Origin: Haplodiscus bocki
Lineage: Eukaryota
Reading direction: 5' to 3'
Assembly: GCA_965655095.1 (NCBI GenBank)
Contig: OZ296656.1
Span: forward strand, 82,894,001-82,958,000
Length of the DNA: 64,000 nucleotides
A program made the position numbers and the translations under genes. Below, piece by piece: positions 3,587-63,479 of the stretch (its first letter is position 1; each line of letters begins with the position of its first letter). The notes under the pieces are model-generated. The model was not told the DNA's origin, made no database searches, and saw nothing but the letters and a program-made list of their open reading frames with translations.

Positions 3587-3702
3587 CAAAATCATTATGT
3601 AAACCAGGTAATGGTATACTAAACTGGGGCTTTTTCCGTTAGGGGAATAACGGAAACGGCTCCAGTTCAGTATATCATTATCTGGTTTGCGTAACGATTT
3701 TG
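3587..3702 (+). repeat. Long hairpin (55-bp arms, 6-nt loop)
   Basis: Arms 3587-3641 and 3648-3702 are reverse complements with 9 mismatches and no gaps. Confidence 0.9.
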
Positions 3703-7995: not shown

Positions 7996-9855
7996 ATATT
8001 GCTTTTCTTCACCTTTCGCCTAAATTCTCAATTTAGATCATTATTTGTTTCAAAATCTATCGCTTGAAGATACATGTGCGTTTAAATATATTCAAACAAC
8101 GACCTACCGGTTTTGAAATCGAGCAGAAATCCCGCAAGTCAGAACTGTTTAAGGATGTGTAAGAAATAGTAAAGCTTTTGATAACCTGGGGATCAAGGTT
8201 GGCGTAGAATTAAAGATCGATTATAAATAGGAAAACGAAACATAAACAAAGTTAGTAGACTGTCCTAAGAAATAAATTGTTTACTTCCGCTTTTTTTCTA
8301 AACCAAAACAATCTAGATCCGCTATCCGCAAGAAATATCTACCGCGGATTTAGAACAAAAGTTTGGGATTTGTCAATTTATACTTAAGGTGTAGCACTCT
8401 TGCTCGTGGTGACGGAATTGTATTGTAGTCTCTGTGAAGTCCGGAATTAATTCTGTAGATTTGTTTCAGTGAATCCTTGCAAAATGCGCCAAGGGGGTCG
8501 CTTATTATGTCAGTATTTTCCACAATTTTGCGTAAAACTGGAAAACTGAAACTTTCAAACTTAATAAGAGTCAAATGTTTCATTATGATAAACACCCGTA
8601 GTAATGCTTATTATTATAATAAACACTTTATAAATCTTGATATACTAACGGTATAGTCCAGACAATGTCGTATATGTACCGGTTATACATTATTTACAAT
8701 AAAGTTCCTTATTAGTAACCAAAAATTTCGTTCCGGCGGAAAGGTTCAAAACGTCGCAATGATTTTGCCCTCAACCTGGGACAAGGCTAAACTGTTTATC
8801 TACATTTCTCCAAGAATTTTATTTAGAATAACCGCTTCTCGCAGCAAAAACGAACCCCCGTAATTTAATGTAAAGGGCATTTAAAGAAGTGTTAAATTAA
8901 CACAGAAATGTTTATTTTACTCCCATGCCGCTAAAACGGAGCCTCGGTAGAAATTTGTGACTTAATTTTGAGATCCAAAGATTCACGCGTTCGCTCAGTT
9001 CACATAAACAACATATTGTATGTTGTAGAAAAGTTTCCTTTAGCAAAACGTTTTTTAGCAGAACTGGGAAAATTTGCAAAAACGGTCAATGCTAACATTT
9101 TTGAATCAGAAGCAGGTAATTTTGTGTATTTTTTCATTTATGATCACACAAATTTCATTTATGACTTGCAAAAGTAATCGGTAAAACTTGCTGTGGCAAA
9201 AAATACCCATTTGTTGAAAAGAACCTGAAAACTGATTGACACTTTCAAATGAATTGATAGCCTAGTAAATGGTGCATGAAGTTTTTATATGCTGCATTTA
9301 TGTGTACAGGCAAATAGTTTCTATAATATAGAAAATTTAGACATTGATTACAGATGTATTTACTACTGCATTAAAAGAATGTTCAGGCGATATATATCGA
9401 AAGAATAAAATAATTGGCTCATCCGATGTTTCCATCACTGCTATGCCACGTTTGCTAGTAGTACTAATTACCAGGCCATGAAAAATTTCCACAGTTAATT
9501 ATAAATGAAAACGAATTTATGAAAAAAATGAAATATTCTATCCGCAAAAAACAACACGAATTTTGCGTAGTTCTTCCAATGCCGGCTGTATCGTTCTGAT
9601 AGATTTTCGGATTGTGTAAACTTTTGGAACAAACGAAGCTGTTGTTTGATAAAGAGGATTAAATGTAGCCTACAAAGAAGAAGCCTTGCCTTTTAAACAA
9701 TTTTTTAGTCTGGTATACAAGAGCTTATTGAAGCTGATAGTAAAAACTAAATATCAAAAAAAAATTATATATCCAGCGTGTACCAAATTGAAAGCTTATG
9801 AAAAAGAGACTCTCTCCGCAGAAACCTAGCAAAAAATGAGATCCTGTAGCACACA

Positions 9856-10048
9856 AGTAGTGTAGTAAATAGCATTTGACACCAGCCGCCCGCGCTGCAC
9901 TTCACCAAGTGAAACATTGAAAAAAAGAAGCAGACGCAAAATTATAACAAAATTTATACTATATCAAAGGGGGTACAGAGGAATAAGAAAACTAAATTTT
10001 GTAAAAAAAAATATTTTGAATAGTATCATCAATGGGGGTACAAAGAAA
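9856..10048 (+). repeat. Left terminal inverted repeat of Polinton element 1
   Basis: Two homology blocks with the right end: a 45-bp terminal block, and a block of about 95 bp containing two copies of ATCAA(T/A)GGGGGTACA. Confidence 0.85.
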
Positions 10049-10299
10049 ATTATAGGAATTTGTGTAAAATTATGTCAAATTAAAAAAATATCTTAAATTA
10101 TAGTACTAATTCCATGGTTTACTTCCAATAATATTTTCAAACCATCGTCTGTCATCAATTGGAGATAGGGTAGAATTTTGTACTCGTTGAGGATACATTT
10201 CATGATTATGAGATCGAATAATATGAATGTTACTTTCTTTTTGATCACGAGAAAAAGGAGATCTTATAAAAATCATTTCAAAAAATTTTATCCAAATAA

Positions 10300-10476
10300 A
10301 TGGATATTGATAAACAAAATAAAATATATTGTGCTGTTGATGAGCAAAGAAAAAATTGTGATATTTGTCAAAAAAATGCTATTGATAGTTATTATAACAA
10401 ACATCTGAAATCACAAACTCGTATTATTAACTTTCAAATAATACAACAACATAATATTCCATTTCCAAATATATAA
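10300..10476 (+). CDS. Small zinc-finger-like viral protein (58 aa, probably decayed)
   Basis: Manual translation MDIDKQNKIYCAVDEQRKNCDICQKNAIDSYYNKHLKSQTR...; CxxC...KHLKS pattern typical of matrin/U1-type fingers, with the last His lost. Confidence 0.5.
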   Translation: MDIDKQNKIYCAVDEQRKNCDICQKNAIDSYYNKHLKSQTRIINFQIIQQHNIPFPNI

Positions 10477-11032
10477 CTTAATTGGTTCAATATCATGGAT
10501 ACAATCCTGATCTAACAGATTTTTCCTCCAATTCACATTTTCATCATTAGTTTAACAAACTAAATCTTTACCCAAGGCAGTTAGTATAATAATCATTCTC
10601 AAAGTATAAATTTTTTCATTTGTTATTTTTCTAACACCATCAACTATTAATTTTTCTATTTCATTGATTTGTCTACAGTTAGTAAATGAATTATCAGTAC
10701 CATTACGACTTTTAATACAATATTCTCGTGTTAAGTTTAATTTGATAATATATTCAATCACATCTAAATCCAATGATATAAAACTATCAACTTAATTCAA
10801 TTTCTTTTTCCATTTTTTGAGGTAAAAAGTAGACGTTTCCATTATAGTAAACGTATGTGATGAATTTTACCGATGGTTATGATAGTTTCAATATTTGTAC
10901 AAATAATGAAAACGATGATAATAATTTTATTATCAAACATCACCTTCTATGAATTTCATCTAGTTAACTTTTACAAAGTCCTGTTAGTTTAAGTATATGG
11001 ACAATTCTCAAACTTTTGTTAACTAATGAAGA

Positions 11033-11767
11033 ATGGAGAGGTTTCTATATCCAAAACATCCAGTTCGCTTTATTATTACAGGACCTTCTAAATGTGGAAA
11101 ATCCTGTTTCGCAAGAAATTTAATTTTAGAAATTATTAACAAATTTGAGAAAAGTTACATCTACTCATTAAGTCTACGCCAAGATTTGCTTCAAAAATTA
11201 ATGAAATGTTTAAGTAACTATATACCCATTCACATAATCCCAAACAATCTGAATGAAAAAGATATTGACTCAGTAAATAATGAAACGGTTAATGATAAAG
11301 CTTTTGAGGAATCAGCTAGAGAATTAGAAACATATGACAGTACAGAAGAACTTAAATTTCTTCAAGACTATGAAGACGGAGGTATATTTATCCTAGGTGC
11401 TCTCAACGAACCAGAAAAGAACGGTCCTGGAGTTCAAGCAATCTTCAAAGGATCTAGACATAATAATTTATCCATTTTCATATTCAGTCCGGATTATTAC
11501 GAAATACCAAAGAGAACGATCAGAAATAAGGGACTTATCAACCACGTCTTCAAACCAAACAATTACAGAGACATTCATAATTTCTATCAAGACAAAACAA
11601 GTATGGATATGACACTTAAGGAACTCAAATACCTAAGTTCAACCTGTTGGGATAAAAAATACCAACCAATTACCTTTGATATGACAAAAGATAAACTTAA
11701 AGGCCGTTATAGAGTAGGATTTAATAGTTTATTCGTTCCAAAAAGCACTCATCTTAAAACACTTTAA
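11033..11767 (+). CDS. A32/FtsK-like DNA packaging ATPase (open frame, catalytically degenerate)
   Basis: Walker A GPSKCGKS after the hydrophobic strand RFIIT; A32-type SRHNNLSIFI motif; Walker B reads IFILGAL instead of hhhhDD. Confidence 0.88.
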   Translation: MERFLYPKHPVRFIITGPSKCGKSCFARNLILEIINKFEKSYIYSLSLRQDLLQKLMKCLSNYIPIHIIPNNLNEKDIDSVNNETVNDKAFEESARELETYDSTEELKFLQDYEDGGIFILGALNEPEKNGPGVQAIFKGSRHNNLSIFIFSPDYYEIPKRTIRNKGLINHVFKPNNYRDIHNFYQDKTSMDMTLKELKYLSSTCWDKKYQPITFDMTKDKLKGRYRVGFNSLFVPKSTHLKTL

Positions 11768-12649
11768 TTGAGTATTTATCATTTTTTTACTGAACAAGGA
11801 TTGATTAATTTAGCTAAATTAGCATAACAACAAAAAAATCAACGAGCAGAAAAAAATAGGAATAGAAATTCAAAACAGACTCATGATAAAAACTAACAGA
11901 AAGCTTTGAGCCTGTAACTAAAAGCATAACAGAAGTGAATGAGTCTACTAAAAAACTTGGAGACGTATTTGAAAATGGAAACCAACAAAAGATCGTTCCT
12001 GTTGAATTTGACTCAGACACTTCAGAGGATGATATTAGGCCTAATATACGAGCTCCTCCAAATATTACCAAGTCCACTGTTCTAACGCAAGACACTTCAG
12101 GATCGTTAATGAAAAGTCACAATTTTCTAAAACTAGAGCAAGATGATTTGGATAAAGCAACCATTTTCGGAGTCCCTGTATTTACTCTAGGTTGTGATAG
12201 ATTGAGAATAAAAGATAATGTGTGCGAATTGACTTCTGAAAAACAAAGTCCTATCTTCATCAAAGTATACTTCTAAAACTATCAAAAATGATAGTGACGT
12301 TTTAATGTTGAATAATATTTCAAACGATTTGGGTTACACAGGTGTCGGAGATAAATCATCAAAACGCCTTTTTGAAAAGATTTGCCTAAACAAATTGATG
12401 AAATAGAATCTGGCAAATCTATACGAGAATGAATCTAATATTCTACAAGCTGAGGAAATGCAAATTTTTATCCCATCTAATATCATTGATTGGAATGCCA
12501 CATTAGATGTCTTATTAGCATTAAAACTATCTGGACATACTGAAACCCTAACAGAAGCTAGTAATCTAATAGATGAATCATACAAAACGGGTGAAATACA
12601 GACTGAAGAAGAGTATTGAAATGCTCTTTATAACTTTCGCATAAAATAA
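11768..12649 (+). pseudogene. Conserved Polinton core gene (coiled-coil N-terminus, conserved helical C-terminus), frameshifted
   Basis: ORF 11935-12276 plus downstream frame IPSNIIDWNATLDVLLALKLSGHTETLTEASNLIDE, resembling the xLxxRLxLLxAxxxAGxT motif of Polinton accessory core proteins. Confidence 0.55.
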
Positions 12650-13420
12650 ACTGAACTAGCTACGAAAATATTACAGCAAATAGCGTTTAATACAATACCT
12701 GAAAGAGAAGAGCATATGTTAATTGTTTTGAATGAATCTACTCATGATGAGTACTTATCTCAATCATTGCAAACTAATATTGAACAATTTAAAGAAGGTG
12801 TCACTTTTCTAACGGGTAATAACGAAAGATTTTATGTTACAAATTCAAATAAAAAATTGTATTTCGCAAAATCAAATACTGATAATGATGGTTTCTTCAA
12901 TTTGCTACTCCACCAAGGCCTTACGAAACCGAAAGATTGAATAATGAAATAAAGAAGATTAGCTTTGAAAAGATCATTTTACTGAAGCAGATTAACCGTC
13001 TACAATCCAACCAAATTTTTCAACAATTGCATCTAATATAGAAATTTCCAGAAAAGAACCATTAATTAGTTTTCTTCTTGATGATAGTATACAAGATCTT
13101 TCGGGTTTTTTTCCAGCATTCTATATGAAGAAAATAACATGTCACCTACTCCAGTCGACATATTATCGTTCGACAGAATTTTAGTTGAGGAAGGATTTTC
13201 AAAGGAAAATGAAGTGAAGTAATTCATCATTTTACTATGGATGTCGATCCTTTGTATAAATATAAAGAAAAATTTCGTGGCGGAGTACACTGGTAAAAGA
13301 AGGAGAGTAAAGGTTTTGTTTCAAATTTCAGTTTCAAATTAAATAAGGATAATGGTGGACTAGAATCATTCAATGGACAAAACATTGCTTTTCGTTTATC
13401 AATCAAGGAAATTCAATTTT
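12650..13420 (+). pseudogene. Minor capsid protein (penton, single jelly roll), disrupted
   Basis: TFLTGNNERFYVTNSNKKLYF at the N-terminus; PVDILSFDRILVE; C-terminal SFKLNKDNGGLESFNGQNIAFRLSIKE matches the penton xDxxGxxxxFNGxxxxFxL ending. Confidence 0.72.
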
Positions 13421-13578
13421 TTAACATAAGAAATGCCGAAGACCTTAATAAAACCGAAATTGCTTCCCAATTAAAATAAATTAAATTTAAACCTAAATTG
13501 AACAATACCAAAACAAAATTACCTGAAGATCTACAAATAATTAAACAAAAAATATTATCAGGTGATGGGTTTGTTGTA

Positions 13579-14858
13579 TGCAATTAGTATTTTTCTTCCG
13601 AATAAACGAGTTTTGAAAATTTCAAATTAATAGATAATGAACCAATGGATAATTCTATCATAAAAAGAAAGTTTTTGAAAAAATATCACCAACAAGGGGC
13701 AAATTTGAATAACCCAGATCAGAATATTGAATTCTTATTCGGAGAAAATAATAACTATCACCAAATAGATAACACCTATCTTCTTTATGATATAACAATA
13801 TGTAAAGCTGATAATACTAATTTTATCGAAGAAGCAATAAGGTTTGTATATAGTCCGTTTGTTTATACGTTTAAAGAGGCTCCATTAGCTACTACAGGTG
13901 CATCAGACTTGGAAAAAAATAAATACGTCGGCCAAATATCAACGATCATGATAATCATACTTAGTAAAGATGACGATTTATTATCTTGTTCTGCTATAAA
14001 TTAATGAAAATAATAAAAATAATACGTCTTTGAAACAAATACTAAATAACCATCATGATATTCATACTAATAAAGGTAAAATTAAAGGTCATTTATCACT
14101 TGAACATTATTTTGTTTTTCGCAGAACAGTTAAAAAACTTCTAATTATTTTAAATTTCACCTAAAATTCAAACAAGTCGATCTACAGGATATTATAATCA
14201 CAATATTAGCAGATAATATTAATATAACAATAAATAATTTCAAATTAGACGTTCCTCTTTTTAATCCAAGAGCTGAAACACAAGCTATGTTTTTTGACTC
14301 TATCACGAATAATTATACAATTTCATTTCATTCGTGGCATAGCGATAGAAAAGTGGTTAATGATGGATTAGAGTTTCAAGCTGATATAGGATCAGCTCAA
14401 AACATTAATAGTTTTAAACGTCTGATAGCAGCACATCAACTTTTAGCTGGGATAGGTATACCAAACAAAACGAATAGTGTAGAAAAGTTTGATACTCTCG
14501 ATTTTAGAAAATAGCATGTTGAAATAGATGGACAGACATACCTAAAAGATGCTGTTATTACAAACTATGCCAAAAATGATTATATGGATCAATACAGAGA
14601 TCCTGATTTATTTTATGAGGAATATGCGTGGGAGGAATTATTGAATTTCTCTATAAATTATTTTGATTGGAAAAGTTTTTATCCTATTCAAGTAATTGAT
14701 TTAAAACATCAAGAAGATCATAAAATCCTAAAAAGTTTCACTTTTTTGAGGAATACAGAATTGATCCTGGTAATGGTAGAACATTCGTTTTAATTAGACA
14801 TAGGCAAGTTGCAATGATATCAGATGGAAATAGAATTGCAGAATAAAAAGGTATATAA
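13579..14858 (+). pseudogene. Major capsid protein (hexon, double jelly roll), disrupted
   Basis: ORF pieces 13645-14004 (DNSIIK...NIEFLFGENNNYHQIDNTYLLYDITI...FKEA), 14287-14514 and 14584-14793 (FYPIQVIDL). Size about 420 codons, positioned between penton and protease. Confidence 0.78.
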
Positions 14859-14875
14859 ACAAATTGACAATACTT

Positions 14876-15262
14876 ATGTTAAAAGATTTCATGAGAAAAT
14901 ATAATTTAAAAAATGATACTATGAACGAAAGTGAATTGTAAAGAGTTTATAATTATCCTATTTACCGCAAGGGTTTGAGTATATATTCAGATAAAGGATT
15001 CGTAAATATCGATAAAGAATCTCAAGGAGTTACTCACTTTACCTATTTATGTGTAAAATATAATAAATCATTCTATATTGATAGTTTGGGTTCACAGGCG
15101 GATAACTGTTTAATTAAACAATTGCCAAAACCAATTACTTATCAGAAGTATAAAAATTAAGATATAGATAGTAGACCATCTGGATCTTATTGTCTATATT
15201 GTTTTTATCTGATAGAAAGAATGGATTATTATGGTGCTATTGTAAGAATGTATTTGCGTTAA
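14876..15262 (+). pseudogene. Adenain-like (C5/Ulp1-fold) maturation cysteine protease, disrupted
   Basis: GFVNID...GVTHF (catalytic His), YIDSLG (Asp), N*DIDSRPSGSYCL (oxyanion Gln now a stop, catalytic Cys now Ser). Confidence 0.8.
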
Positions 15263-15266
15263 ATAA

Positions 15267-16683
15267 ATGAAGATAAAAATATTTGTTAAAATTTCTTCTT
15301 CACATATTAATGAAAATAAGATTGATAGATCACTCTTTGTACAAGAACCTTTTTTAAGAATTACTTACGTCGAATCTATTTTTGAAGAAGACATTGACAT
15401 GAAAAATGAAATGAAAATTTACTTTTTTTCTGTAGAAAAAACAGATGCTGTTTGTAAATTTCATGCTGATGGTTTGGAGGTTCTAAGTATAGTTAGAGAC
15501 ACTGCACAATGATAAAAGTCTTGACATTGTTCGATTTGTTAAAGTAAACCCTAGCGATATCTCAACATTAAATTCCTAAGCAGTATGTGGATAATTCCAT
15601 AGATGAAGTTACATCAGTGAGAATTTATTGAAATGGTGACTTTGAGAATAATACATTGCTTAATATATGGAGTATAATTCTAAGTTCTGATCCAAGTAAG
15701 TATAATCACGCTGCAAGAAAAAACTATGTTGATAACACTATAGACAAATCATCATTGTTAAGAGTAGATCCTGATCAAAAAATAAAACTAGATGAACAAG
15801 ATTCTAATAATTCTAATTCTACTTTAACATCACCGGAGACGATAAAAAAACACCTACCAAATCATATGTTCATAGGTTACATGAAAATACTAGAAGTATA
15901 CGAGATATAACGACAGTATCTAACGATCAAGATAATGAATTTGATTAAAATATTTCAAAAAATTTAGATAGTTTTACAGTTAATAGAAATCCCAGTTCAG
16001 ATAACGGAGTCTCAACCAAAAAGTATGTTGATGACTCAAAAGGAGAAGGTGCATTAGTTAGGTTTAATCAAACTCTACAAAACAATATCAAAGTTTCCGT
16101 CAGGAACGATGTTTATTCTCTTCCTAAATATGACAAAATACAAATTACACAGACAACAACAAATAAATATCCTAACAGTGATGGATGTCTCTTACCAGAA
16201 TGGACTATAAAATGTAATGGTAAAAACAAAAATTGCAAAATACAAAGCTTTATAAAATCAACAAAAAGATCCAGTCCAACAAGTTATTCGGGAGCAACGA
16301 GTTTACCTGCTATAGGAGATTCATTCATGTATATAGAAACAAGTCAAAATAGTTCGGGTAGTGAAAAGATTTTTGTTTCCTTTGAACGAACAGATAATAT
16401 ACAAATTACCAATATCACATTCTATTATAACAGATTTTCAATTTTAAATAATAACTCATTGAAATTGATGAGTTGTTTCGGAAATCAACTTCTATTGAAA
16501 GATTACACATGGAACACGAAATTTATTATCTCGAAAATTAGTGATTCGTCAACAAATTGGACCTTAGCTGCTTTAAATTTTGCAGTAGAAAACTATGGCA
16601 TCAAATTAATTTACAATCAACTCGATACACCACATGCAGGTATGTCTTATAGTAATATGACAAAAACGCATTCTTCATACTAG
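15267..16683 (+). pseudogene. Putative fibre/receptor-binding protein with xxKxYVD repeats, disrupted
   Basis: Repeats HAARKNYVDN, VSTKKYVDD and degenerate AVCKFHAD, followed by a beta-rich C-terminal domain (ORF 16327-16683). Confidence 0.5.
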
Positions 16684-17144
16684 ATGGATCATATATTTTA
16701 TTTTAGAGATTTGTTCGAATCAATTCCAGATTATAAGAAAAAGTGTTAAAAATGTTCTTACTTAAAAACGATGTTTGTTTACTAACTGGATGTGGATTTT
16801 TAAACAATGATAATAATCGCCTTTGTTTAGAATTAAAAAGATATTACTGGAGCACAAGGAAGATTATTTGGATAACATAAAGAATGATGGAGAACCTATT
16901 ATCGAAAAGATTTTAAATAAATGATTGGAACAAAAGTTTGCTACAATGGTTGAAGATATTAGACATGAACGATACCTAATTTTATTACTATCATTAACAG
17001 ATCCAGATAACTAAAAAATAGCAAAGTTACTGATCCTGAGATAAACAATATAAAAAAACTTGCTGCAGAAAGACTATATAAACAGCGAATGTTGAAAGAA
17101 CATGCAGCCTTACAGTTAATGGAATAGTATTTTCTGTTGATTAA

Positions 17145-17760
17145 ATGAGGGTTAATCAAAATCTGAATAGCGGTCCAAAATAAATAAGTTAAAACAAAAG
17201 ACGACGAGATCAGAGAATTAAAAAATAGAATGGAGAAACACGATTACGAAAATACTTTAAAGTATCTTAAAGTTCATAGTGAATATTACAAAAGGAACTA
17301 TAGGAGCTTAAATAAAAAAAATTTACGATCGTTTCAGAAAAATTGATTGGCACTGTTGGATTAGGAGTTGGATCCGCTTTGACTGTATCAGGATTAGCTC
17401 CTGTCGGAATTGTGTGTGCTAGTAGTATTTCATTCTTATCCAGCATCAGTACATTGATTACAAATGAAATATTTTAAAATTAAAAACACCATTTACTAAA
17501 TAAAGAGATTGGATTATTGTTATTACTTTAATAAATGAGAAAACAATGAAACAATCTAAGGTTGAACAAAAAAAATTGATGAGAAAGAAACATTGTAATT
17601 AAGTAGGCTTTAAAGTCATAATTTAGATAAAAAGAAAAAGATTATGCAAAATACTCAATTTAGAAACGAAGATATTTTTGGTGAAATAGTAAGTAAAGAA
17701 CCTATTTCATCAGAACACATTACTAAACCCAAACAAACTTTAGCCAAAAAGACCTAAATA
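17145..17760 (+). pseudogene. Coiled-coil plus two-transmembrane-helix viral protein, disrupted
   Basis: KTKDDEIRELKNRMEKHDYENTLK coiled coil followed by LIGTVGLGVGSALTVSGLAPVGIVCASSISFLSSISTLITNE. Confidence 0.55.
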
Positions 17761-17869
17761 CTAAATTTTGTTTAACTATAATTTTATTTAAACCTAGAAA
17801 GGAAAAAATTAAAAAATATGACCCAAGTTCTCCTCCCGAAGATTCAACTTTTTAGTAAATAAAAGAGCT

Positions 17870-18600
17870 CCGAACGAACTTATTGTGTGGGAGGAGGTCA
17901 TTTGAGTAGTACATACAACGTAGTAAGATATTAGAAGAACAACCCTAAAACATGAAAAACTGTTAAAGTCAGAAAAAGAAAGTGTGAATAATCTGGACGG
18001 AACGAATCACAAAAATTTACTAAGTAAATGACACGAGAAGGAGATTTCATTAGGAAAGGGAAATGTAAAAGTAAACACTGTTCACTAAGGTCACATGCAG
18101 CATGGTGTGTTTTAAATAGTAAGGTTGATACGATTATTCTGGACGGAACGAATCACAAAAATTTACTAAGTAAATGACACGAGAACGAGATTTCATTAGG
18201 AAAGGAAAATGTAAAAATAAACACTGTTCACTAATGTCAAATGCAGCATGGTGTGATTTAAATAGTAAGGGTGATACAATTATATTACAAGATATTTGTC
18301 GTAATCAGAGACGTAAAATTCAAAAGCAAAGTACGTTTATCCAGGACATTTTCAAACGGAAGGAAGATCAATTCAAGATAAACTATAATTAGTTTTCCGA
18401 GGAACAGAAGCTGCTTGGTGTAAATCTCTAAAAACAGCATTTAATACAACAACTCCCGTTATTGGAAAGGCCGTGGCTGCAAAATCAAAGAATGCTGCGG
18501 CTGGAGGAACTGTTACAAAAAATTTAAAATCATTAACGGGGGACGGGTCTTAAATTTGACAGACGTTCATGATTACGAATTGAGATTGAGAAGAATGTAT
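17870..18600 (+). pseudogene. Small Cys-rich protein (YCVGG) plus Cys-rich protein with amphipathic Gly/Ala/Lys tail, disrupted
   Basis: RTYCVGGGHLSST...; MTRERDFIRKGKCKNKHCSLMSNAAWCDL; tail FRGTEAAWCKSLKTAFNTTTPVIGKAVAAKSKNAAAGGTVTKNLKSLTG. Confidence 0.5.
17992..18283 (+). repeat. Tandem duplication, 2 x 146 bp
   Basis: 17992-18137 and 18138-18283 differ at 8 positions by manual alignment. Confidence 0.95.
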
Positions 18601-18629
18601 TTTTGTTTCAATAAATCTTTTATAACAAA

Positions 18630-19200
18630 ATGAGTGCTAGCAAAAAAAATTATTTGATTATTAATTGGATAAAATTGTAAAAAAAATAGAAATACACAAT
18701 TGAAATTGACTTTTTAGAAAGATAATACAAAAAATGATGGAGTTCAAAGCCAATGGATAACCTGTGCTAAACAATATCATAGAGATGATAGGGAAGAAAA
18801 TTTGCTTGATAGAAAAACAAAAGAAAAAGATATGAGCTTCAGTTTGATTTGTAATATAAGAAAACGGACAAATCAATTATTCAAATCTCAAAATATTAGG
18901 AAAACAAAGAGATCATATAGTTTACTTGGATGTTCTAGTCCTTTTTTCAAGGAATGGATACTCTATCACCTATATGGTGATATTAGTGTAGAAAACTAAG
19001 GTTTCGTTTGGACAATCTATCACTGTTATCTTCCTCCTAAAACTGACCTATACAATGAAAAGGAGATGTACAAAACAACCAATTGGATTATTATAAGGCC
19101 TTTGTTTGCTAGTGAAAAAAGTCAGAAGGATCTAAAGTTAACCATATTCTATATCTACTGCAAGAGATTAGAGCTAGGTGTTTTTTTTAAGATTGAACGC
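18630..19200 (+). pseudogene. HNH/endonuclease VII-like nuclease of the type found in large DNA viruses, disrupted
   Basis: LICNIRKRT...SYSLLGCS..FFKEWI...GDISVEN*G.VWTIYHC...TNWIIIRPL..SE matches the LLGC...ENYG..WxIDH...NWxNLxPL...EN pattern. Confidence 0.65.
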
Positions 19201-20062
19201 CCATGGAGGATAATGTTAGATCATTCAATTTTGAGATATATTCCAAATCACCTGAAAACAATAAAAACAATTATCCAACTGTTCAATTAACATATAATCA
19301 GGTCGATGAAAAATGGAGCTTCTTTTGAGAGGGTTTTCCAGTTTATAAAACAACGAACAATAGCGTGTTTAGGTATATATTCATCAAAATCGATAGTTTC
19401 TCAAAATATACAAGGACTTTTCCTTTAAAAAAGAAAAACGTTCAAACAGCCACAAAAGAATTTTCGATTATTCTAACAACAATCAAATACTCTCCTGTTA
19501 AATTAAAATCTAAACGAGAAACAGAATTTTATAAATCTTTTTTCCAAAACTTCTTGAAAATTAAAAATATACAACACTTTTCGAGATTCACAGATAAAGG
19601 TCCTCAATAAGAGAACGAATAGTTAGAACTGTACGTAATTTGTTAAAGAAATTAGTTTTTTTTGGCCGGAAGAGCTTCTTGGATATCTGAAATTCCATCT
19701 GTCAATAATAATATAATTTTACCATACACTATTCAACCAAAATGACTCCAATCGATGGATCTAAACAATTTTACGAAAAAGTAGTATTTTTCAAACTCCA
19801 AGACAAAAGAAGGAAACAAAAACCAAAACTTAGATTGATAGATATGGTTAGAACATCTGATATTAGATCAGTTTTCAGCAAAACAGATAGTACAAACTAC
19901 AGCTATGAGCTTTATGCAATAACCGAAATCATACACCACACTACCTTTAAGTATCGAGTCAACTATTTACCCGAGAGACACAACGAGAATCTATTAAGAT
20001 CAACAAATTTAACCCTTGATGAAAACAATCAAATTGTAAAAAAACTAAATTTAATTCAATGA
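19200..20062 (+). pseudogene. Retroviral-type (rve) integrase of element 1, disrupted
   Basis: FRYIFIKIDSFSKY...PLKKK...PVKLKSKRETEFY (from xxSDxGxEF); ERIVRTVRNLL; MTP; VFSKTDSTNYSYELYAITEI. Confidence 0.88.
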
Positions 20063-20077
20063 AAAGACAGATAATAA

Positions 20078-20560
20078 ATGGAATTAACTGAAGATGAAAT
20101 TCTTCAAAAAGATGCAAAACTATGCAATCACTGTATGAGTAATACTCTTCTCTCATATGGATAAAAATTTACTTGTATCGCCTGTGGATATAACGTAATT
20201 GAACGAAAAAACGAACTTTGTAAAGTTTCACGGAAAAAACTAAATTTTGGTTAACAGAATAAAATAAACTCAACACAAAAATTTTCGAATTTGTGTAGAC
20301 GTTTATAAAACAATTCAAGGTGAGTTTTGCAATAAAAATTTTGAAGTATTATCAAAGTTAAAAATAAAAAACCAAAAACTAAGAAAATGTTAATTGAAAA
20401 ATATGCAAATATGAAAGATTATCCAATTTTTGAAAAAAAAACAACCATTCAAGAACTTCAAAAGCTAATAACAAATTAGCTTATGATAGTTTCAGAAAAC
20501 TGAAAATGATGGCATAATATTATCATTCTTATGCAAACATAAATTATTTTGATTTGATGG
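20078..20560 (+). pseudogene. C4 zinc-ribbon protein, disrupted
   Basis: MELTEDEILQKDAKLCNHCMSNTLLSYG*KFTCIACGYNV (CxxC-x13-CxxC). Confidence 0.5.
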
Positions 20561-21591
20561 CATCTGTTTTGAGTTTTCTAAATGAAATATCCTAATAATG
20601 GATATTATGTGGAAGGAAATGATAAATGATCTTAATTCATCCAAATGAAAAAATAATATTACGAGAATGAGATCCACCAAAATCTTTGGAACTCAAAATC
20701 AAGTACAAATATAAACAAAAATTATTAAATATCAAAAGTTAACAAAAACGATATTTATGTGTTAGAAGTTAAACCTTGTCTTAAAAAAAACCAACAATGG
20801 AAAAACCAAAAAATGTTCCTTTCTTGTACAGGTTTAAAACAAAAAAATTAGATGGAAGTCACCCATGGTTACTATTACTATTGAATGTGAGTTTTTTACT
20901 CATAAACAAAAACACCAGATAGATAAAAAAATACCTAGAAAAGATAAGAATTTTTCAACGAGATTAACTTATGCTATTAAAAAGATGAAAAAACATCCTA
21001 TTGTATGGTTAATACTAAAAATATCACGACGGAAGGTAAGATTAGTAAATTACAAAGTTAAAGGTAAACCAAAATTCAAATTTACCAAAATATAAGTAAA
21101 TATTATGATGAAATTAAAAATCAAGGGCAAAATGCTTGTTTTCAATTTGAAGAAGATCCTTTCAAAAAAAAGGTAAAAAAAAGTAAAATAATTCATGAAG
21201 TATTACCATTATTGAAAATTTCACAGACAAAATCCAAAGTTAGGAGCATGAGAACAATTCAGTATAATTTGTACTATACAGCTATTAAAAACAAAGGTGA
21301 AAAAGAAGTAGAAGATGATGAGAATACAATTGATATCTATTATTATTTCTATATGATTTTTGAGTGCAGAAAATTAAGAGCTCAGATACTTTCTTTTAAG
21401 CTCTTTATCCCATATTAATGGGGACGCAAAATAATAATAGACGCAATTTACATTTCCATGTTAGATTAAACAAAAATATTAAATGCTACAAAAAGATTGA
21501 AATATAATAAAGCTGATAGAGGAAACGTAAGAAATTTTTTTTATAGAAAAAATAAAATTAAAATATAAAGACAATCCTACTAAAATGAGAA

Positions 21592-24500
21592 ATGGAAAAG
21601 ATGTTTAGAATTTTTTATTTTAGGAAAGATATAGTTACTAAGGAAATAATTAAGAACTGTAGATGTGATATTTATATTATTGATTTTCATAAAGCATCAT
21701 TTGCTAAACACATAAGAAGCAAAAGCCATTTGGAAAATATAAAAAAAAACGCAATGATTACACTAGAATGGTTGTTTCATGAAATTTTTGACTATAAACC
21801 TGAGATAAATTCTAATCCCAAGCCTTTACGAGAAATAGCAAGCGATAATATTTAAATAGATGATAAGCAATTAAACAAATTATTGGCCGAAAATATGAAT
21901 AATCCATATTACTTCACTGATAGAGCATCACAAGGTAGAATTAATTTTACTCTGGCAAGCCATCATAATAATCACACGAATTCTAATTTAACTTATTAAC
22001 CAAATTATTCAGAAAATGGAACTGAAATCAGAGATATCAAAAAAGTATTAAAAGAAATGGCTACTATTTATGCTAGAATAATAAATCAATAAGAATTTAA
22101 ATATCAAACAGTGTTTTCAGCAAAATTTGATAAACAAGATGAAGATAGACAGATGTTTGATGAAATTGAATTGTATTTAAACTTAAATTATAATCATAAT
22201 TAAACAGAAAGAGATAATAATAATATTAATGATAATAAGTCTCCATTAGAAAGTCAAATTCAAAATCAAGAGAAGAAATATTCTTGATGTAGATGTGATA
22301 AGAATAATTCAATGACAGTATTTTTTTTTATAAAACTACTGAAATCAATCGTTCAAGTGAAATTAAAATTCCGTTGAGAAGTTCTGCTATCCTGAATATT
22401 GGAAATGATGATAAATAATGTTTCCCTTGGTCGATAATAGCAAGTCTTCATACTTGTGAAAAAAATCATCCCAACAGAGTATCAAATTATAGAGAATAAC
22501 TTTGAACATTCAAGATTTTATTTTTTTAATTAGATTTAAATGGAGTGATAATCATTTCTTCGAAAAAGTAAGTAGTTTATCCTTATTTTTATTTGAAGTA
22601 AGTTTTTATCAAGATCAAAACAAATGGAAGCATAAATTAATACCTATTGAAAGTAGTAAAAAATAGTTCAAATACAATTTATGACTTACTGATATTAAAA
22701 AGTCCTTATGTTCTCAATAAAAATTGACGTGCATTTTATGTTATCAAATTTCTGAATTTGTTTGTAGAAGATGTTTGAGTTCTTATACAAGTCAGAATGT
22801 ATTAGTGAAAAATAAAATATGATGTTAGCAACAAGAAACGACAAGTATTAGAACTTCACATGAATCTCATTCACATTGGAGAAATAACTTTCATAAGAAT
22901 CCATTTCATTTTCGGATATATGCCGATTTTGAAACTGATAAAGAAATTGATAGTTCTAGTATAGGTAAGGAAAAACTATTGTTTTTAGGCAAAATCCTAT
23001 ATGTGATGGATTTTAAATAGTATCTGTTATAAATGATTTTCCACAAACTGGTTACTATGAATCTCATCTAGGATATGATAATGTAGATTGTTTTCTTGAG
23101 GAAGCAATAAAAATAGAAAAAAAAATGGTTTTCTATTTTAAAACCACTAAAAAAGACATAATAGAGAGTGAAAAATATGAAAAACAACGTAGGGATGAAA
23201 ACAATTGCCGATTTTGGAGTGAACAAATATTTTCTGATAACGTTAGTGATCATTGTCATCTCACTGGTAATTATAGAGATCCCACTCAACAAAACGTAAT
23301 TCTAATGTCATACAGAAACAAAGTAATTTTTTACCATTTGCAATCCTCAATTTCAGTAAATAAGATTATCATCTATTTTTCAAGAAGCTGGATGATAAAA
23401 ATAATGATAAAGTGAAATTTGATTTTACACCTAAAACAAACGAAGATTATTTATCAGTAAAATATCGGTGCTTAAGTTTTAGTGATAGTTACAGATTTTA
23501 ATGAAACAGTTTAGATTCATTAGTTAAAACATTCGATAATAATGATTTGGAAATTTTGAAAAAAAATTCCAGATAAATGGTTGTATCTCAAGAAAAATTA
23601 TATTATCCGTTTGAATATTTCAATAGTATCGATGTTTATCAAGAGCCGGTTAATAGTTTGAAAACGGAAAAAATCTTCAGTAAAATAAAAAATAATTATC
23701 CAAATGATAGTGAAATAGAAGGAACAAAAGAAATGATTAAATTATTTAATAATAGAAACGGAGCTGAATTGACTAAGTTTTACTTAAAAAGAGATGCTAT
23801 TTAGCTGATGTCTTTGAAGAATTTATGAAAGCATCTATAAAGGAACTTGATATCAATCCTCTATATTGCGTGGGTCTATTAGGTTATACTTGGCAAAGTG
23901 GATTGAAATTTATTAATTTCAGCTTACAAACACTTCAAGACAAAGAATTGATTTTATCCCTGGAGAATAATATTCGAGGTGGAGTTTCGTCAGTAAAGGG
24001 TGATAGATATATAAAATCAGTTGAGAATAAAAAAGGTTTGTATATTGATGCTATTAATTTATATGGTTGGGCTATGAGTGAATCTCTACCACACAATGAA
24101 ATTGAAACGTGGAAAGGCCATCCTGATTGTTAAATGGACAAGTTAAAAAAATTCAAATACTCCAGATGATTCAGATATAGGTTATTTCGTTGAAGTTGAA
24201 CTGAAATATACAGATGTAAACAAGGAAAAAACAAAAACTCTTGCATTTTGTCCTGAGAATAAAGTTAGTTCTCAAAATAAATTTACTAAACATTTGAAAG
24301 ACACAAAATTTGATAATTATAGTCAAAATATGAAAATATTATGTGATTGGACAGATAAATGGAAATATTTGCTTCATTATAGGATGATAAAAATTATGTG
24401 AATCATAGCATGATAGTTGAAAAAATTCATGGGATAATTTCATTTAGGCAAAACAAATGGTGGGAAAAATATAAAAAGATTTAATACAAAAAAAATTTCA

Positions 24501-25292
24501 AGCAAAAACTCATTTTAAAAAGAATTTGTACAAATTACTCAATAATGCAGTCTTTGGAGAAACGATGGATAATATTCGTAATCGGGTGAAAGTAGAGTTT
24601 ATTAAAAGAAATCATATTGAAAAAATTATTAAACAGCAATCAAAATTAAGCTTCAATGGAATACATAAGTCCTACACAAATTATTGTAGTTACACATTTA
24701 AGCAAAATGAAGAACTTATGAATCAGCCAATTTACTTAGGATTCCCAGTATTAGAATTAAGTAAATTATTGATGTATGAAGCAATTTATGATAAATTGCA
24801 AACCTGTTTTGGAGACAAAAATATAAAATTATATTATATGGAAAATGATAGTTTCATATTGAATGTGATTACAAAAGCTATTATTGAAAACTTAAAAAAG
24901 CTTGATGATTTATTTGATTTTAGCAATTTGAGTGAAAATCTTTATCTATTTTTTAATAAAAAGAACAAAGAGTTTGGAAAATTCAAAGTAGAAACTCCTA
25001 AAAATGTTTAGATTGATGAATCTATTTGTCTGAGAAGTTAAATGTATGCATTTAAATGTGGAATTGATCAAAAAATAAATTGAAAGTTTTTTGTAAATCT
25101 CCCTCGAAAATAGTAATTTTGAGGAACATATAAAATGTTCAGATGGACGTGATTATCAAAAAGAATGTGATAATTATATTTTTCGTTCACTAAACCATGA
25201 AATGTATCCTCAAAATACTAACATCTACACTATCTCCATTTGATGAAAAACGGTGTTAAATGAAAAATATTGAAAGTAAACCTTGGAAATAA
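21592..25292 (+). pseudogene. polB: Protein-primed family B DNA polymerase (pPolB) with EndoVII-like insertion, heavily disrupted
   Basis: N-terminal Zn finger and AILNIGNDDK*CFPWSIIA; ExoI IYADFE; DHCHLTGNYR insertion; YPFEYF; NIRGGVS; motif A LYIDAINLYGWAMSESLP; motif B YKLLNNAVFG; motif C YYMENDSF; GKFKVE; terminal DEKR. Confidence 0.93.
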
Positions 25293-25923
25293 TACTATTC
25301 AATGGTTATAAAAAAAAGAAAAACTTGAAAGGACTAGAAATGCTAAAAACAATGATAAGTCTAAAAAATTCATTTTATGATGACAAAGATGAACAATATA
25401 TTATGATAGAAGTCTATTTAAATCAATAGAAAGACAAAAAAAACATATTTTGGGATCATATTATAAGTTTTTACACAAAATCCACCGGCCAACTTTCATG
25501 TCTACTTTTTCAAGAATACGCGAGTGAGCATTCCTGGCAAAGTTGCGCTTCGATCTAGTCAACTTTTTCAAGCCTCAAGACGCAGACAGTTCCTCCATAT
25601 AGCTTTCATGGCAGTTTCACGACAGAGACAGGAGATACGTATTAAGGAGTGAACCCCAAACACTCCGGCGAAGATTTAACTGAAGTCAATGTCACTTTTT
25701 GCATATACCAATCAGATATCAGAGACATATACATATCAGCATATACATATCATATTCAGTCGGCCTAGTTGGTAGTGGTGAATTTTTTCAGTCTCGCCTA
25801 TATCGTAAAAGTGCGCGTGCAAAATTTTTATCAGTTGTATATTCATTAAAACTTAAAAGAATTTTAAAGGAAACTTTCATATGTTGTAGAAAACAAATAA
25901 GTCAAGTAAAATTTTTTTTCTGG

Positions 25924-26084
25924 TTTCTGTGTACATCCATTGATAATACCATTCACAATTTTTTATACAAAACTAATTTTTTTTTCTGTGTACCCCCATT
26001 GATATAGTATATATTTCCATTAATTTTATTACCTAATTTGTGCGGCGCGCGCGGCTGGTGTCATATGCTGTTTTTAATGTTACT
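25924..26084 (-). repeat. Right terminal inverted repeat of Polinton element 1
   Basis: Reverse complement reads AGTAACATTAAAAACAGCATATGACACCAGCCGCGCGCGCCGCAC...TATACTATATCAATGGGGGTACACAG...ATCAATGGATGTACACAGAAA. Confidence 0.85.
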
Positions 26085-29000
26085 CGCACACTTTACGGCG
26101 AAACACTATTTTTTCGGGAGAAACTTTGAGCCCTGCTTATCACATCTTTCCCCCGTTAACAAACAATTTCTTCTTTTTCATAACTTACGTCGATTAGTTT
26201 TATATCCACAAGACTGAAACTGCCTCACCTGAAAAATGCGATCAAAGTGAATCGATTTTTCTACATGTAAGATTTTTTCAGATGCATCTTAAAACATGAA
26301 AAACTCACAGATTTGTTGCCAGAACCTACTTGTATTTTACGGAAAAAGCCAATCTTTGACAAGTCCAGCAAAAAAAACTAGGATGGTATGAACGATACAG
26401 ACAAATTTTCACCGGAGAATGCTTTAAACGGAACGTATTGTAATAATTCAGAATGTCTCAGCTAACACACAAAATCAACCAAATATTTCGGTCAACCATC
26501 ACTAGGGTAACCAATTTCTACTAGGTGATGATAGATGAAGAGTTTTTAAGAAAAACTATGTTGAAGGAAAGTCCACGTAAAGTTTTTTACTACAGGTCGC
26601 AAAAAATACCTGAATTGAAACTGTTGACAGCACCTTAATACAGTTATGAATTTCACATTGCTGGCAACACCAGAATTGACGTCATGGATTAGTAAAAAAC
26701 AGAAACGCAAAGAGCTCAAAAACTTCAAAGCATCTCAAACACTTTAAACTGTTGGCTGTTTTTTTTCAGAAGATGAAACAAATGCCATCAGAGAATTAAC
26801 TTTTTGTAGCCATTCTGTTTTGCTTTCGAACTGAAACGGCAATGACATCAATCAGCCTGAAAAAAATTGTTGAGTCATCTGACGAGAGTTGTTATTTGAA
26901 AAACAACGGCTTTCCATAAAAAGTAAATTATCACCGGAGAGACTTATTTCGTTAAGGTTTCAGCTCTGAGAAATATCATTGCCCTAAGTGTTATTAAAAT
27001 GCAACGATTATTTCCCTGGAGACATTTTTCTATTTTTCTCGGAAACTGCATGCTTGTGGCACCAATTTTTTGACAAGACAATGAGGTGTGTCTTGGAAAA
27101 AAACATGAATTTAGACGACTATCGGCAGACAAAAAATTTCCTTTCCTGAAACTTTTAACTCTCGAAAAAAGCGAACGAAATGAAACTTCAACGCTTAACT
27201 CATAATTCACCTAAACAATTAGGAAGTCGCCCTATGTTTCTTGTCATGTGCAGTGTGTTTGTTGCCATAGAAAACGATGCGGGCAATAAACGTCGGAAAC
27301 ATTTTTCGACATAAAGATTAGCTCAAAGTTTTTGCATATGACATCAAAAACATTAAACGACTAGGTGACTAGGTGTCGGGAACAGTCCAAAGAAACGGTT
27401 ATCAATTTTTTCTGCAAGATATCTTGAATTATGCCAAAAAGTTATTCTCAACATAATTGTTGCAGTCGGAGACTGAAAAATCTGAGAAATTGAAAGTTTT
27501 TCATTTTTGGTTGAGTTGTATGATAGATGTTTCTAAACCTCAAGAAAGCCTTAGCATTTTCTCAAGATATGATATCATCGATGAGGTGCTTCATAGCGTC
27601 TTTTTGGACCTTATAACTATTCAAAACAGTGAAATTCACTTCTGTTCCTACCCTGACCTTCAGTGTGCCATTTCTCATGGCCACTTGGTGCTTGCGACCA
27701 CATATTTTGGCGTACCAAGTTTCTTAGCCAGTTTACATTTGCATTGGCTTTGAGCCCGAACCGAGATTAAAAATTTCAATTTGCTGCCCAATGGGACTTT
27801 TTTTGATGGTTATATCTCATGTCATAAATTTTGAATTTTTGGCCATTACTCGATTTTTTGTTTGTAATTTTCTTTTTTAGGAGCGTTAGTTACACCAGTT
27901 GTGCTTCAAGCATCTTCAGGGACACCTATATTGACAATTGTTGTAGTTTGATTTTGCAAAAAGTGTTAAGATTTCACATGTTTAATGTCAAACTTGACAA
28001 TTTACATACCTTTAAGGGCAGTTCCTGTCCTCGTCTTCCCTGTCAAATGTCAATTATGATCTCGGCCATTTTTTATGACTAAAATCCGTTTACTTGACTG
28101 CTCTTATGTTAACACCTCTCACCCTATATTTTTACATTGCTTGAAGATCACGTTTTCAGGCTGTTTGTTACGTTTATCCTATTATTGTGTTTATACATTT
28201 TGCCCTAATCTAAAAACCTTGTAAGTTTTTAGTTAATTTGGTTCCCATGGTAACCTCCCGCCCCATTATGTTTCAGAAATTTCAGTTTTCAATTTCATGA
28301 AAGGTTTTTCACGGGTTATACTGTTGTTAATGTCAGAATTTGCTATGTAAACATTGGATACTCTAGCATTATTGTGAAGTAAAATTTAACTGATCGAAGA
28401 ACAGTTGCTCTGAAATTCGATATTTTAATTAACAATTCCTTATGCTAGAGCATGCAGGCAAAGATACAGTCAGATAGAGATTTGAAACCAAAATTGCTGG
28501 AAGCTCAAAGACAGCAATAAGGTTGTGGAAAAGTTCTAATTTAAAAGTAGCCGGAGTTGGAGTTATTCCAACCAAGCAAGAAAAACAGTCCTTTCAAACC
28601 TATTGGACGGACCAAGGCCGGTGTAAAGTATAAGAACAGAGTGTTCTTGTACAGCCATTACAATAATTGAGTGATTTCTCATTTGGCTCAAAGTCCAAAA
28701 ATACAGGCAAAACGAGAATCGAGCTTGGCCCTCTAACATAGGATGAAGGTTGAAACATGAATTCTTGCGCTAAAGGTATCAAACATGTTTTGCATGAACT
28801 TTTAAAATTTTGTCTCGGAGTTAACAGATTTGACCTACTAGAGCAAAGTACTGGCCTCGAGAGTACCTCTTGCTAGTAAAAAGTTTCCGACTAGAAAATT
28901 CATTCCGCCAAACACCTGTATTTGAAACTTTTCGGTTTTTTCCGAAGAATAAAAGCTTAGAACGATGACGTTTTATCTGCAGAAAAACCGTCTCGGTACA

Positions 29001-29479
29001 TAACCTACGTACGGAGACATGAGGGCTCAACGTTAGTTTTACCGAAACGTGTCAAGGAATATGCTAAGCGAACGTGCACTCAATGAGCTTTGCGCTTAGG
29101 CTATGAACATAAGCAGGATGAAGCGAATCAATCCTTTTCGAAGTTTTCAAACAGGGCTGACATAAGATTCCAAAGGGACATCTTGAAAACATAATGTTGA
29201 AACGCTTGTTGCAATATTTTAAACGTCTCGACTCCAAAATGATCCGAACGCTTACTCATCATCTGATTGTATCAGTTTTTTCTACTTGACCTTGCAACAG
29301 CTAATGAAAAATCTGGGACAAAACTTTGAGAGTATTTGAAAGAAACAATCAAAAAAATAATCAAGGGGCGATAGGTTTGCCGATGGCTTAAATAACAAGG
29401 CGACCGGCTACCACCAGCATTTTTTCCGCCTTCCCCTTCTGGTAAAGCTGCTTTTTTAAAAGATGAAAGCGTAATTTTT

Positions 29480-29935
29480 TTCAAAATACGGTTTCTCCAT
29501 CACATTTTTTTATTTTCCAACTTTGAAAATAATTTAATTTTTCGCCGGAAAAACCTCAGAATTAAGGTGGATAAAATGTTTTTTTTTTGCGAAAAAACTT
29601 CATTTGATACGCATTCTAGAAACAATTTGCCATATTTAGCGATTTTGAAAAAAATTCAAGGTTCTTTTTCGAAAAAAATATCGATTTTTTCAAAAAAAAA
29701 CATATTTCCTTCGTTTTGAGAAATTTTACTATTTCAGCCGCATTCTACGGCAATTTGGTGAAGTTTTTTTGCTACAATTATATGAAAAAAGTTCACGTTC
29801 AGAAACGTGAACGAGCATCGTGAACGCAATTGGCAAACATCGGGTAAAAAAAACCGTTCCATTAGAGAAGAAGGTTTTTCTTCCATAATTAAAAAATATG
29901 GCGGAAAATAATAAAAAATATGGCGGAAAATAAAA
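29480..29935 (-). repeat. Copy of a dispersed AT-rich repeat family (other copies about 5400-5700, 34440-34720, 53960-54290)
   Basis: Shared motifs AAATTTGCYGTAGAATGC.., ACGCAATTGGCA and TATGGYGGAAAATAA recur at these loci. Confidence 0.6.
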
Positions 29936-44977: not shown

Positions 44978-45133
44978 CTGGAATCCCTTGCACTTGATGA
45001 GTTCCTTCAGACGATCAGTGATAAACAGGTGATGATCTTCATCGAAATGGCCGATATCACCCGTATGCAGCCAACCATCGGCCGATATTGTCTCCTCTGT
45101 TGCTTTGCTGTTGTTCAAGTACCCTTTCATCAC
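44978..45133 (-). CDS. 4CL-like acyl-CoA synthetase exon
   Basis: VMKGYLNN...GWLHTGDIG...[13 protein letters not shown]; acceptor accAG, donor GTAAGT; 156 bp, phase 0-0. Confidence 0.95.
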
Positions 45134-46665: not shown

Positions 46666-46841
46666 TTGCGGTCCTCTAACACAAACTTCGCCATCTTGTC
46701 CGACCGGGAGCGACTTTCCACTTTCAGTGTCGACAATTTTGCACTCGGTGTTGGGCAGCACCATCCCTCCTGACCCATGTTTCATCTGTCCCTCCTTAGA
46801 AGGAAAATGCGAGGTAGGACTCAGCTCAGTCATGCCGTAAC
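46666..46841 (-). CDS. 4CL-like acyl-CoA synthetase exon
   Basis: GYGMTELSP...GEVCVRGPQ; acceptor tttAG, donor GTATGT. Confidence 0.95.
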
Positions 46842-48094: not shown

Positions 48095-48309
48095 TGTTCT
48101 ATTCTGGTTCTCTCGGTTAAAAAAAAATTTAAAAAAAGATGTATCAAATAACAACTATTCCTTGGTATGGTTAATTTTGTATAACTTTTCATTGATGATT
48201 TGAGTTTAAAGTAATGTATTTTTTACTAATATGTATCAACAATTGTCTAAATATAGATTCTACTCCGGTACGGTTATGTAACCGAATGTACGCTTGTCAC
48301 CGTATAACA
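48095..48309 (-). repeat. 3' LTR (215 bp)
   Basis: Same termini as 52034-52234, with an extra A-rich insertion of about 14 bp. Confidence 0.93.
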
Positions 48310-48322
48310 TTCCCCTCCTTCT
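48310..48322 (-). promoter_or_regulatory. Polypurine tract
   Basis: AGAAGGAGGGGAA on the - strand abutting the 3' LTR. Confidence 0.85.
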
Positions 48323-49982: not shown

Positions 49983-50269
49983 ATGATTAGTTTGAGTATA
50001 ATGGATTGTCCTTCGGCGATATCGTCGTTTTTGAGGTCGACTATTGGGACGTTCGACGAAGAGTTTGCCACCTCAATTTCTTCGGTGCTCGAGACTGGTT
50101 CGGGTTCAGTCGTGCTTTGTTCCCCTGTACTTGACTTTTTTTTACTAGAACTGGGTTTCGGTTCATTAAACTCAAAGTAACCTCCGCCCCACAGGTTCTT
50201 TTATTTGTTCCGGATAAGAAGTTCGAGGTCAATTGCAGCCACCTCATCCTTTCTTCGTTGACAATTATC

Positions 50270-63470: not shown

Positions 63471-63479
63471 CAATACTTA

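Follow-up and report, generated by a model that had tools for sequence, protein, structure and literature searches.

Animal Mavericks (Polintons) may be autonomous, or they may depend on large DNA viruses or defend against them; these possibilities have been raised before (PMC8097293), and no virions of animal Mavericks have been seen so far (10.64898/2026.06.19.733378; here and below, statements about cited papers refer to the accessible parts of their text). The same question is posed by a stretch of 64,000 nucleotides from Haplodiscus bocki (assembly GCA_965655095.1, contig OZ296656.1, positions 82,894,001 to 82,958,000 of the forward strand), called the window here and numbered from its first letter, which contains at 9856-26084 a full-length Polinton/Maverick of 16,229 bp with both ends present. 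In its family, a poxvirus-type late-promoter layout and an apparently captured poxvirus polymerase subunit point to the likely class of helper virus, and helper dependence of animal Mavericks thereby becomes testable. The account that we favour, and hold to be slightly on the probable side, is that the family is a mavirus-like integrating satellite for which a co-infecting pox-like virus would supply the late RNA polymerase.

The host genome has a size of 1.5 Gb and includes twelve large contigs; its tandem histone arrays and Wnt genes mark the host as an animal. First-look searches returned 8,068 candidates with a hexon fragment and 10,760 with a polymerase fragment, with 150 per search taken on to scoring. 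The polymerase motif C site, searched for as an exact pattern of 21 bases, gave 1,598 matches, and the reversed control gave none; the family has at least 1,600 copies in this genome. Twenty-six element-sized stretches were fetched for comparison. There are two families, A (that of the window copy) and B, which differ in gene order and have capsids that are ~26% identical. Each was found with either of two unrelated polymerase types; in nematodes, two polymerase types are likewise swapped within one genome (PMC10748475). The elements are 73-75% AT. Another Polinton remnant in the window, at ~57300-64000, belongs to family B and is more decayed; it has a protease, two penton-like genes, a hexon (61479-62659), an integrase on the minus strand (62688-63442) and a polymerase of the second type that extends past the window end. 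At G000:C9:8562231-8593953 there is a tandem array of ~1.2-kb units, each with the C-terminal part of the polymerase.

Most genes of the family appear to begin with a poxvirus late-gene signal. We compared the starts of Met-initiated open reading frames (ORFs) of at least 120 residues with out-of-frame background ATGs. In five stretches of family B, TAAATG stands at 65 of 82 long ORF starts and at 42 of 1,165 background ATGs; in seven stretches of family A the figures are 59 of 106 and 73 of 1,433. The enrichment is about elevenfold to twentyfold over a background of 4-5%. When distinct genes are counted, each seen in at least three copies, TAAATG is found at 15 of 16 starts in B, including those of polymerase and integrase, and at 14 of 21 in A; by reading, three of the A starts without it are internal methionines of broken frames. 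A peak of T at -13/-14 (gene-weighted frequencies of 0.72 and 0.78 in B, 0.78 and 0.60 in A) stands ten bases before TAAAT. TAAATG and the -13 T peak match the vaccinia late consensus, which is TAAAT(G) over the start codon with a T ten bases upstream (PMC11980589); TAAATG has also been marked on conserved genes of a fish poxvirus (PMC4542343). Hexon relatives in two metagenome records (70-77% DNA identity) have TAAATG in 7/7, and host histone genes in 0/3. The window copy has kept it at four of the 11 starts looked up, and three more keep TAA but have lost the ATG.

These starts might instead reflect translation context or a tendency to compaction in small, AT-rich genomes, in which case the element would be an ordinary fossil with unrelated passengers, namely the rpo18 gene and the intein described below. 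The base composition given above suits this explanation, as does the penton, whose start is in several copies a true stop-start junction; both passengers are also confined to a minority of copies and absent from the window copy. Yet the enrichment is elevenfold to twentyfold, stop-adjacent starts use TAA in 188 of 188 cases and TAG or TGA in none, and stop-start coupling had to be rejected as the source of TAAATG, as the TAA is the end of a preceding ORF at only 5 of 91 starts. The -13 T peak recurs in two families with highly divergent capsids, and both rpo18 and the intein are under purifying selection. We therefore consider the ordinary-fossil explanation improbable.

Some family A copies carry near their left end a gene of 140 residues (for example L098:602-1030 and L044:8968-9546) that matches Pfam Pox_RNA_pol (E 1e-21) and has vaccinia rpo18 as its sole significant match in the PDB (E 1.8e-9). 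At least 150 loci were found, and all 150 that were scored pass the Pfam cut-off. With a ratio of non-synonymous to synonymous change (dN/dS) of 0.28 across 13 copies, the rpo18 homologue is under purifying selection in a sub-lineage. The main rival account of promoters and gene is an autonomous nuclear polintovirus: the TAAATG promoters would be served by host RNA polymerase II, which a factor encoded by the element may steer, rpo18 (Rpb7-type) would act on the host polymerase, and the pox-like genes would be relics of past co-infection. Integration does require access to the nucleus, family B carries a helix-turn-helix gene, and a VLTF3 search of the genome for a helper was blank, its control being silent as well. 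However, rpo18 matches the poxvirus protein and not cellular Rpb7 in the PDB, and the TAAATG motif lies on the start codon with vaccinia spacing, where, as an initiator, it would preclude a normal 5' leader. Pfam scans of family proteins gave no match to TBP or TFIIB, of which a divergent one could be missed. On balance, we regard a purely nuclear life as rather unlikely.

The polymerase of some copies contains an in-frame insert of 347-348 residues at motif C, with conserved LAGLIDADG and splicing residues, that scores above the Pfam cut-off for Intein_splicing. Among in-frame copies, Ser1 and the block-B His are present in 44/44 and the catalytic Asp residues in 44/44 and 42/44; the in-polymerase flanks read have Thr at +1, with one decayed exception. 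The filled-site pattern has 94 matches, as against the 1,598 empty ones. With about half of these filled sites free-standing, the intein occupies some 3% of polymerase genes; it is present in 1 of the 29 nearest polymerase relatives. About 100 copies with intact nuclease residues share the genome with more than 1,500 empty sites. We classified 63 intein loci, chosen by intein searches: 34 lie in the polymerase and 29 are free-standing behind the other polymerase type. The free-standing gene has a short start of its own (an 11-residue extein) and ends 4-10 residues after the intein, and is found in young family B elements (L066:1411-2517, L090:6692-7777 and 27 other loci). The intein is under purifying selection, with a dN/dS of 0.15-0.31 in the nuclease part and of 0.22 on changes shared among free-standing copies. 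Frames are open in 23 of 29 free-standing inteins, compared with 7 of 27 in family A polymerases; recent origin also helps to keep the former open. That the free-standing gene is a leftover of a polymerase swap is less likely, given its own start codon, short exteins and the dN/dS of 0.22.

Co-conversion markers and a scattered tree position fit homing of the intein, and ordinary recombination fits too. A Cys codon four positions upstream of the site occurs in 18 of 21 intein alleles of A and in 4 of 5 of B, as against 0 of 34 empty alleles, and B intein alleles have A-type residues right at the insertion site. The synonymous difference between A and B is 0.35 over the first 300 intein bases and 0.65-0.74 (uncorrected) in the upstream polymerase; the corrected distance is 0.77 for the whole intein and 0.92 for the nuclease part. 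The flank tree of the upstream polymerase region (70 rows, full-length upstream pieces only) is star-like, so the two processes are not separable by tree. One in-polymerase intein, L134, nests among the free-standing ones and has no Cys flank marker, as if a free gene had homed back into the polymerase. An empty allele with Cys at +1 makes up 39 of the first 100 listed empty sites (hand count) and has a synonymous difference of 0.75-0.89 in the first 60 bases at the site; the intein was never seen with this allele. Seventeen of 22 outside intein relatives scanned are DNA_pol_B-type PolB proteins, and in the two whose flanks were read the intein occupies the same motif C site. The donor may have been the PolB of a large DNA virus.

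Life as a satellite in the factory of a pox-like virus would be the simplest account of the TAAATG starts, rpo18 and the intein together. The rve integrase would insert the 16.2-kb linear genome and make the 6-bp duplication, and the genes would be read from poxvirus-type late promoters in the cytoplasmic factory of the helper. Sharing this compartment would have let the family capture rpo18 and the intein of a large-virus PolB; the former may retune or jam the helper polymerase, and the latter would home among polymerase alleles. Polymerase, ATPase, capsid proteins and protease would copy and package the genome. Precedents for such a life are the promoters that virophages share with their helpers (PMC10945749) and the Polinton-like viruses of entomopoxviruses (PMC11296320). 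We give somewhat less than an even chance to a further reading, in which animal Polintons are provirophages of a poxvirus-like virus, with two families on late promoters, one lineage carrying the helper's Rpo18, and a homing intein; the free-standing nuclease of family B would be aimed at the intein-free polymerase of rivals, and the divergent Cys allele would escape it.

Several observations weigh against the satellite account. The helper was not found in the VLTF3 search described above, and thousands of copies could also result from autonomous nuclear transposition. In family A, the polymerase gene lacks an exact TAAATG and has a different start context, and the starts of the protease, rpo18 and some fibre-like genes read TAAATATG instead. 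The motif TAAATG is itself short and rich in A and T, the copies of one family do not count as independent, the host control consists of three genes, and the signal may be Polinton-wide and serve host polymerase II. On our reading, one close relative of the intein is phage-like and not giant-virus-like. Finally, the window copy has no trace of rpo18, and its intein site is empty and, by its flanking bases, of the Thr type.

The window copy was first noticed in a sequence-only reading as a complete Polinton with ends starting AGTA and a 6-bp target-site duplication with a single difference. Both features are there: AGTA begins at 9856 on the plus strand and at 26084 on the minus strand, and CACACA (9850-9855) faces CGCACA (26085-26090). 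The features of the element are as follows.

9850-9855, no strand: left target-site duplication, CACACA
9856-10056, plus: left terminal inverted repeat, begins AGTAGT
10100-10245, minus: inverted copy of 25155-25298 (78%), the 3' end of the polymerase
10300-10482, plus: remnant of a 63-residue Cys/His-rich accessory gene
10854-11039, plus: remnant of a small (~70 residues) accessory gene
11033-11767, plus: A32-type packaging ATPase, the only large frame still open; Walker B motif altered
11768-12646, plus: accessory gene C5 (~290 residues in relatives), 5 breaks
12650-13425, plus: penton-slot gene (260 residues in relatives), 7 breaks; labelled by position and size
13444-13584, plus: remnant of a conserved 51-residue gene between penton and hexon
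13606-14858, plus: double-jelly-roll (DJR) major capsid protein (hexon), 4 breaks, start codon gone
14864-15259, plus: adenain-like maturation protease, 2 stops
15267-16683, plus: accessory gene C3 (440-470 residues, repeat-rich), 6 breaks; TAAATG start intact
16684-17133, plus: remnants of two small conserved genes (80 and 73 residues)
17188-17748, plus: accessory gene C10 (205 residues, central hydrophobic stretch), 6 breaks
17875-18024, plus: remnant of a conserved 52-residue gene
17986-18283, no strand: 152-bp tandem duplication, 93% identical, younger than the insertion
18174-18597, plus: accessory gene C12 (143 residues), 3 breaks; TAAATG start intact
18676-19198, plus: accessory gene C9 (Cys/His-rich), 4 breaks
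19206-20071, plus: retroviral-type (rve) integrase, 4 breaks
20078-21349, plus: accessory genes C4a (20078-20583) and C4b (20582-21349), 16 breaks; both TAAATG starts intact
21613-25286, plus: protein-primed-type family B polymerase, divergent kind, with an HNH/EndoVII-like insert, 31 breaks
24832-24855, plus: polymerase motif C, the intein insertion site (24843/24844), empty and mutated in the window copy
25916-26084, minus: right terminal inverted repeat, begins AGTAAC on the minus strand
26085-26090, no strand: right target-site duplication, CGCACA

The inverted arms of ~200 and ~170 bp are identical at 129 of 167 aligned bases (77%), and the inverted copy at 10100-10245 probably represents the inner portion of an inverted repeat that was formerly longer. 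The duplication flanks match at 5 of 6 bases; the chance of one mismatch or less between two random 6-mers of the window is 0.9%. The CG>CA mismatch may be due to CpG decay: CpG columns have changed at 14 of 24 positions in the hexon, compared with 41% of all G/C columns, and at 2 of 9 in the ATPase. GC content is 25-32% inside the element and 33-38% in the flanks, with a consistent strand skew. Ends or gene labels that arose by chance or through misassembly would be in keeping with the modest identity of the arms, the duplication mismatch and the failed structure models (see below), but collinear relatives occur across the genome, and exact matches to the stretch exist among read contigs of two samples from a single study, with one contig spanning the right junction. 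Moreover, four of the 26 fetched stretches have AGT-starting ends and a perfect 6-bp duplication; many of the stretches lack one end. We find an artefact hardly credible. The empty site that the sequence-only reading had proposed to look for did not turn up, as no joint skipping the element is among the filtered read-contig joints listed for the two samples; the insertion is probably fixed. At L027-L028, the left end of one copy and its 6-bp flank are duplicated, 1.7 kb apart.

Gene remnants were mapped using the natural open frames of other copies from the same genome as probes. The gene order, all on the plus strand, is ATPase, C5, penton-slot, hexon, protease, the putatively fibre-like C3, C10, C12, C9, integrase, C4a, C4b and polymerase. 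With six small conserved genes besides these 13 larger ones there are ~19 gene remnants in total, and thirteen accessory remnants where about ten had been expected. In alignments, the ATPase, penton-slot, hexon, protease, integrase and polymerase remnants cover 95-100% of their unbroken relatives, at 55-64% identity. On unbroken relatives, Pox_A32 (E 4e-12), DJR-like_dom (E 1.6e-13) and rve (E 4e-12) exceed the Pfam cut-off. The capsid match, which bears out the proposed DJR hexon, was made on a relative 57% identical to the family of the window remnant. Peptidase_C5 is weak and below the cut-off (E 0.036); His, Asp and Cys motifs can be seen in the relatives. The integrase piece from the window gives a weak rve match and aligns at 60% identity over residues 4-285 of 289. 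Polymerase relatives show PolB motifs A, B and C; the divergent type has no Pfam DNA_pol_B_2 match and no PDB sequence match, but sister copies have a DNA_pol_B_2 protein in this slot. We infer that the window-type polymerase is protein-primed. A AGACGCAAAA motif precedes the family A polymerase start and is also present in the terminal repeat, for example at window 9931-9941.

The co-oriented set of ATPase, hexon, adenain-like protease, integrase and protein-primed polymerase (pPolB) thus stands as first described, and the penton does so by slot and size. The hexon does not start at 13579; it begins near 13606, and 13444-13584 is a separate small gene. Folding, suggested for both capsid proteins, showed no fold: AlphaFold models on shallow alignments had a pLDDT of 38 for the hexon, with which a fold search was uninformative, and of 32 for the penton-slot protein, leaving the hexon to be identified by Pfam. 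The Atlas look-alikes of the penton-slot protein are unnamed viral clusters (0.98), its profile had no match among PDB sequences, and C10 has weak, unnamed Atlas look-alikes only (0.90). Three scans of viral contigs found no relative. C12 (L049:8864-9292) and C5 (L055:3627-4511) contain xGG/xGxG stretches, which we take to resemble adenoviral protease cleavage sites; this suggests that the two may be core proteins.

The window copy is old and dead, and has decayed almost neutrally. Across its 13 larger genes there are 47 frameshifts and 41 stops. Of the hexon columns that seven relatives conserve, 27% are changed in the window copy (0.28, 0.23 and 0.33 by codon position); for three relatives, themselves within the yardstick, the figure is 1-3%. 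The inverted arms of other copies are up to 99.6% identical. The description as a fossil full-length Polinton is borne out by the ends, the duplication and the Pfam DJR, A32 and rve matches on unbroken relatives. The emphasis on this copy as an exceptional record is not, as it is among the more decayed of at least 1,600, and full-length but mostly degraded copies are the norm for Mavericks (PMC8097293). Taken alone, the window copy is an ordinary Polinton fossil; it is the family that is unusual, through its poxvirus-type gene starts, rpo18 and the intein, none of which the sequence-only reading had noticed.

Elsewhere in the window, the exons of a host gene lie on the minus strand at 44696-54733; it presumably encodes an acyl-CoA ligase of the 4-coumarate-CoA ligase/luciferase kind. 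Within its span, at ~48100-52200, there is a retrotransposon-like gag/pol remnant with an 83% direct repeat at its borders. A degenerate inverted repeat pair (29389-29753 and 34467-34789, ~5 kb apart) and a short palindrome at 3587-3702 are probably old DNA transposons.

How does the family compare with known systems? The window copy has the length and terminal inverted repeats, 6-bp duplication, integrase, polymerase, DJR capsid, ATPase and protease of Polintons/Mavericks. As described for these elements (adintoviruses, Polintoviricetes; PMC4028283, PMC8097293, PMC8502044), the family has a length of 15-20 kb, (AGT)2 ends, a 6-bp duplication, genes for pPolB, rve integrase, A32 ATPase, protease and capsid, and mostly degraded copies. 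For the poxvirus-type late starts, the apparently captured rpo18 and a true pPolB intein, we found no counterpart in the accessible parts of published descriptions. A literature search that covered neither supplements nor most subscription journals nor Repbase found no report of a Polinton/Maverick intein, TAAAT late promoter or rpo18.

Mavirus and the EMALEs of Cafeteria resemble the family in having pPolB, an rve integrase, many integrated copies and gene starts agreeing with a large DNA virus's late promoter; in the mavirus-CroV system, shared late promoters predict which integrated elements respond (PMC10945749). However, they have a protist host, an isolated helper (CroV), proven reactivation and a virophage-type capsid, whereas here the host is an animal, the helper is inferred, and the capsid is probably of the Polinton type. 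The Polinton-like viruses found in entomopoxvirus occlusion bodies are also Maverick-related and tied to animal poxviruses, with gene flow from the poxvirus (PMC11296320). Two of them have no known integrase, and the accessible text of that paper does not mention 'promoter', 'TAAAT' or 'RNA polymerase'; our family is massively endogenised, and its pox link consists of promoters and rpo18.

The intein shares with the motif-C inteins of viral family B polymerases the Ser start, TxxH, two LAGLIDADG motifs, the His-Asn end, Thr at +1 and the insertion site between YxD and TDS, at 31-43% identity. We take it to belong to the Pol-c type (motif C) of LAGLIDADG inteins of these polymerases. An intein origin of the HNH-type inserts in pPolB has been put forward as a suggestion only (PMC11161782). 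Unlike in the viral cases, the protein that hosts the intein here is a protein-primed polymerase in animal chromosomes, and one lineage of the intein is free-standing.

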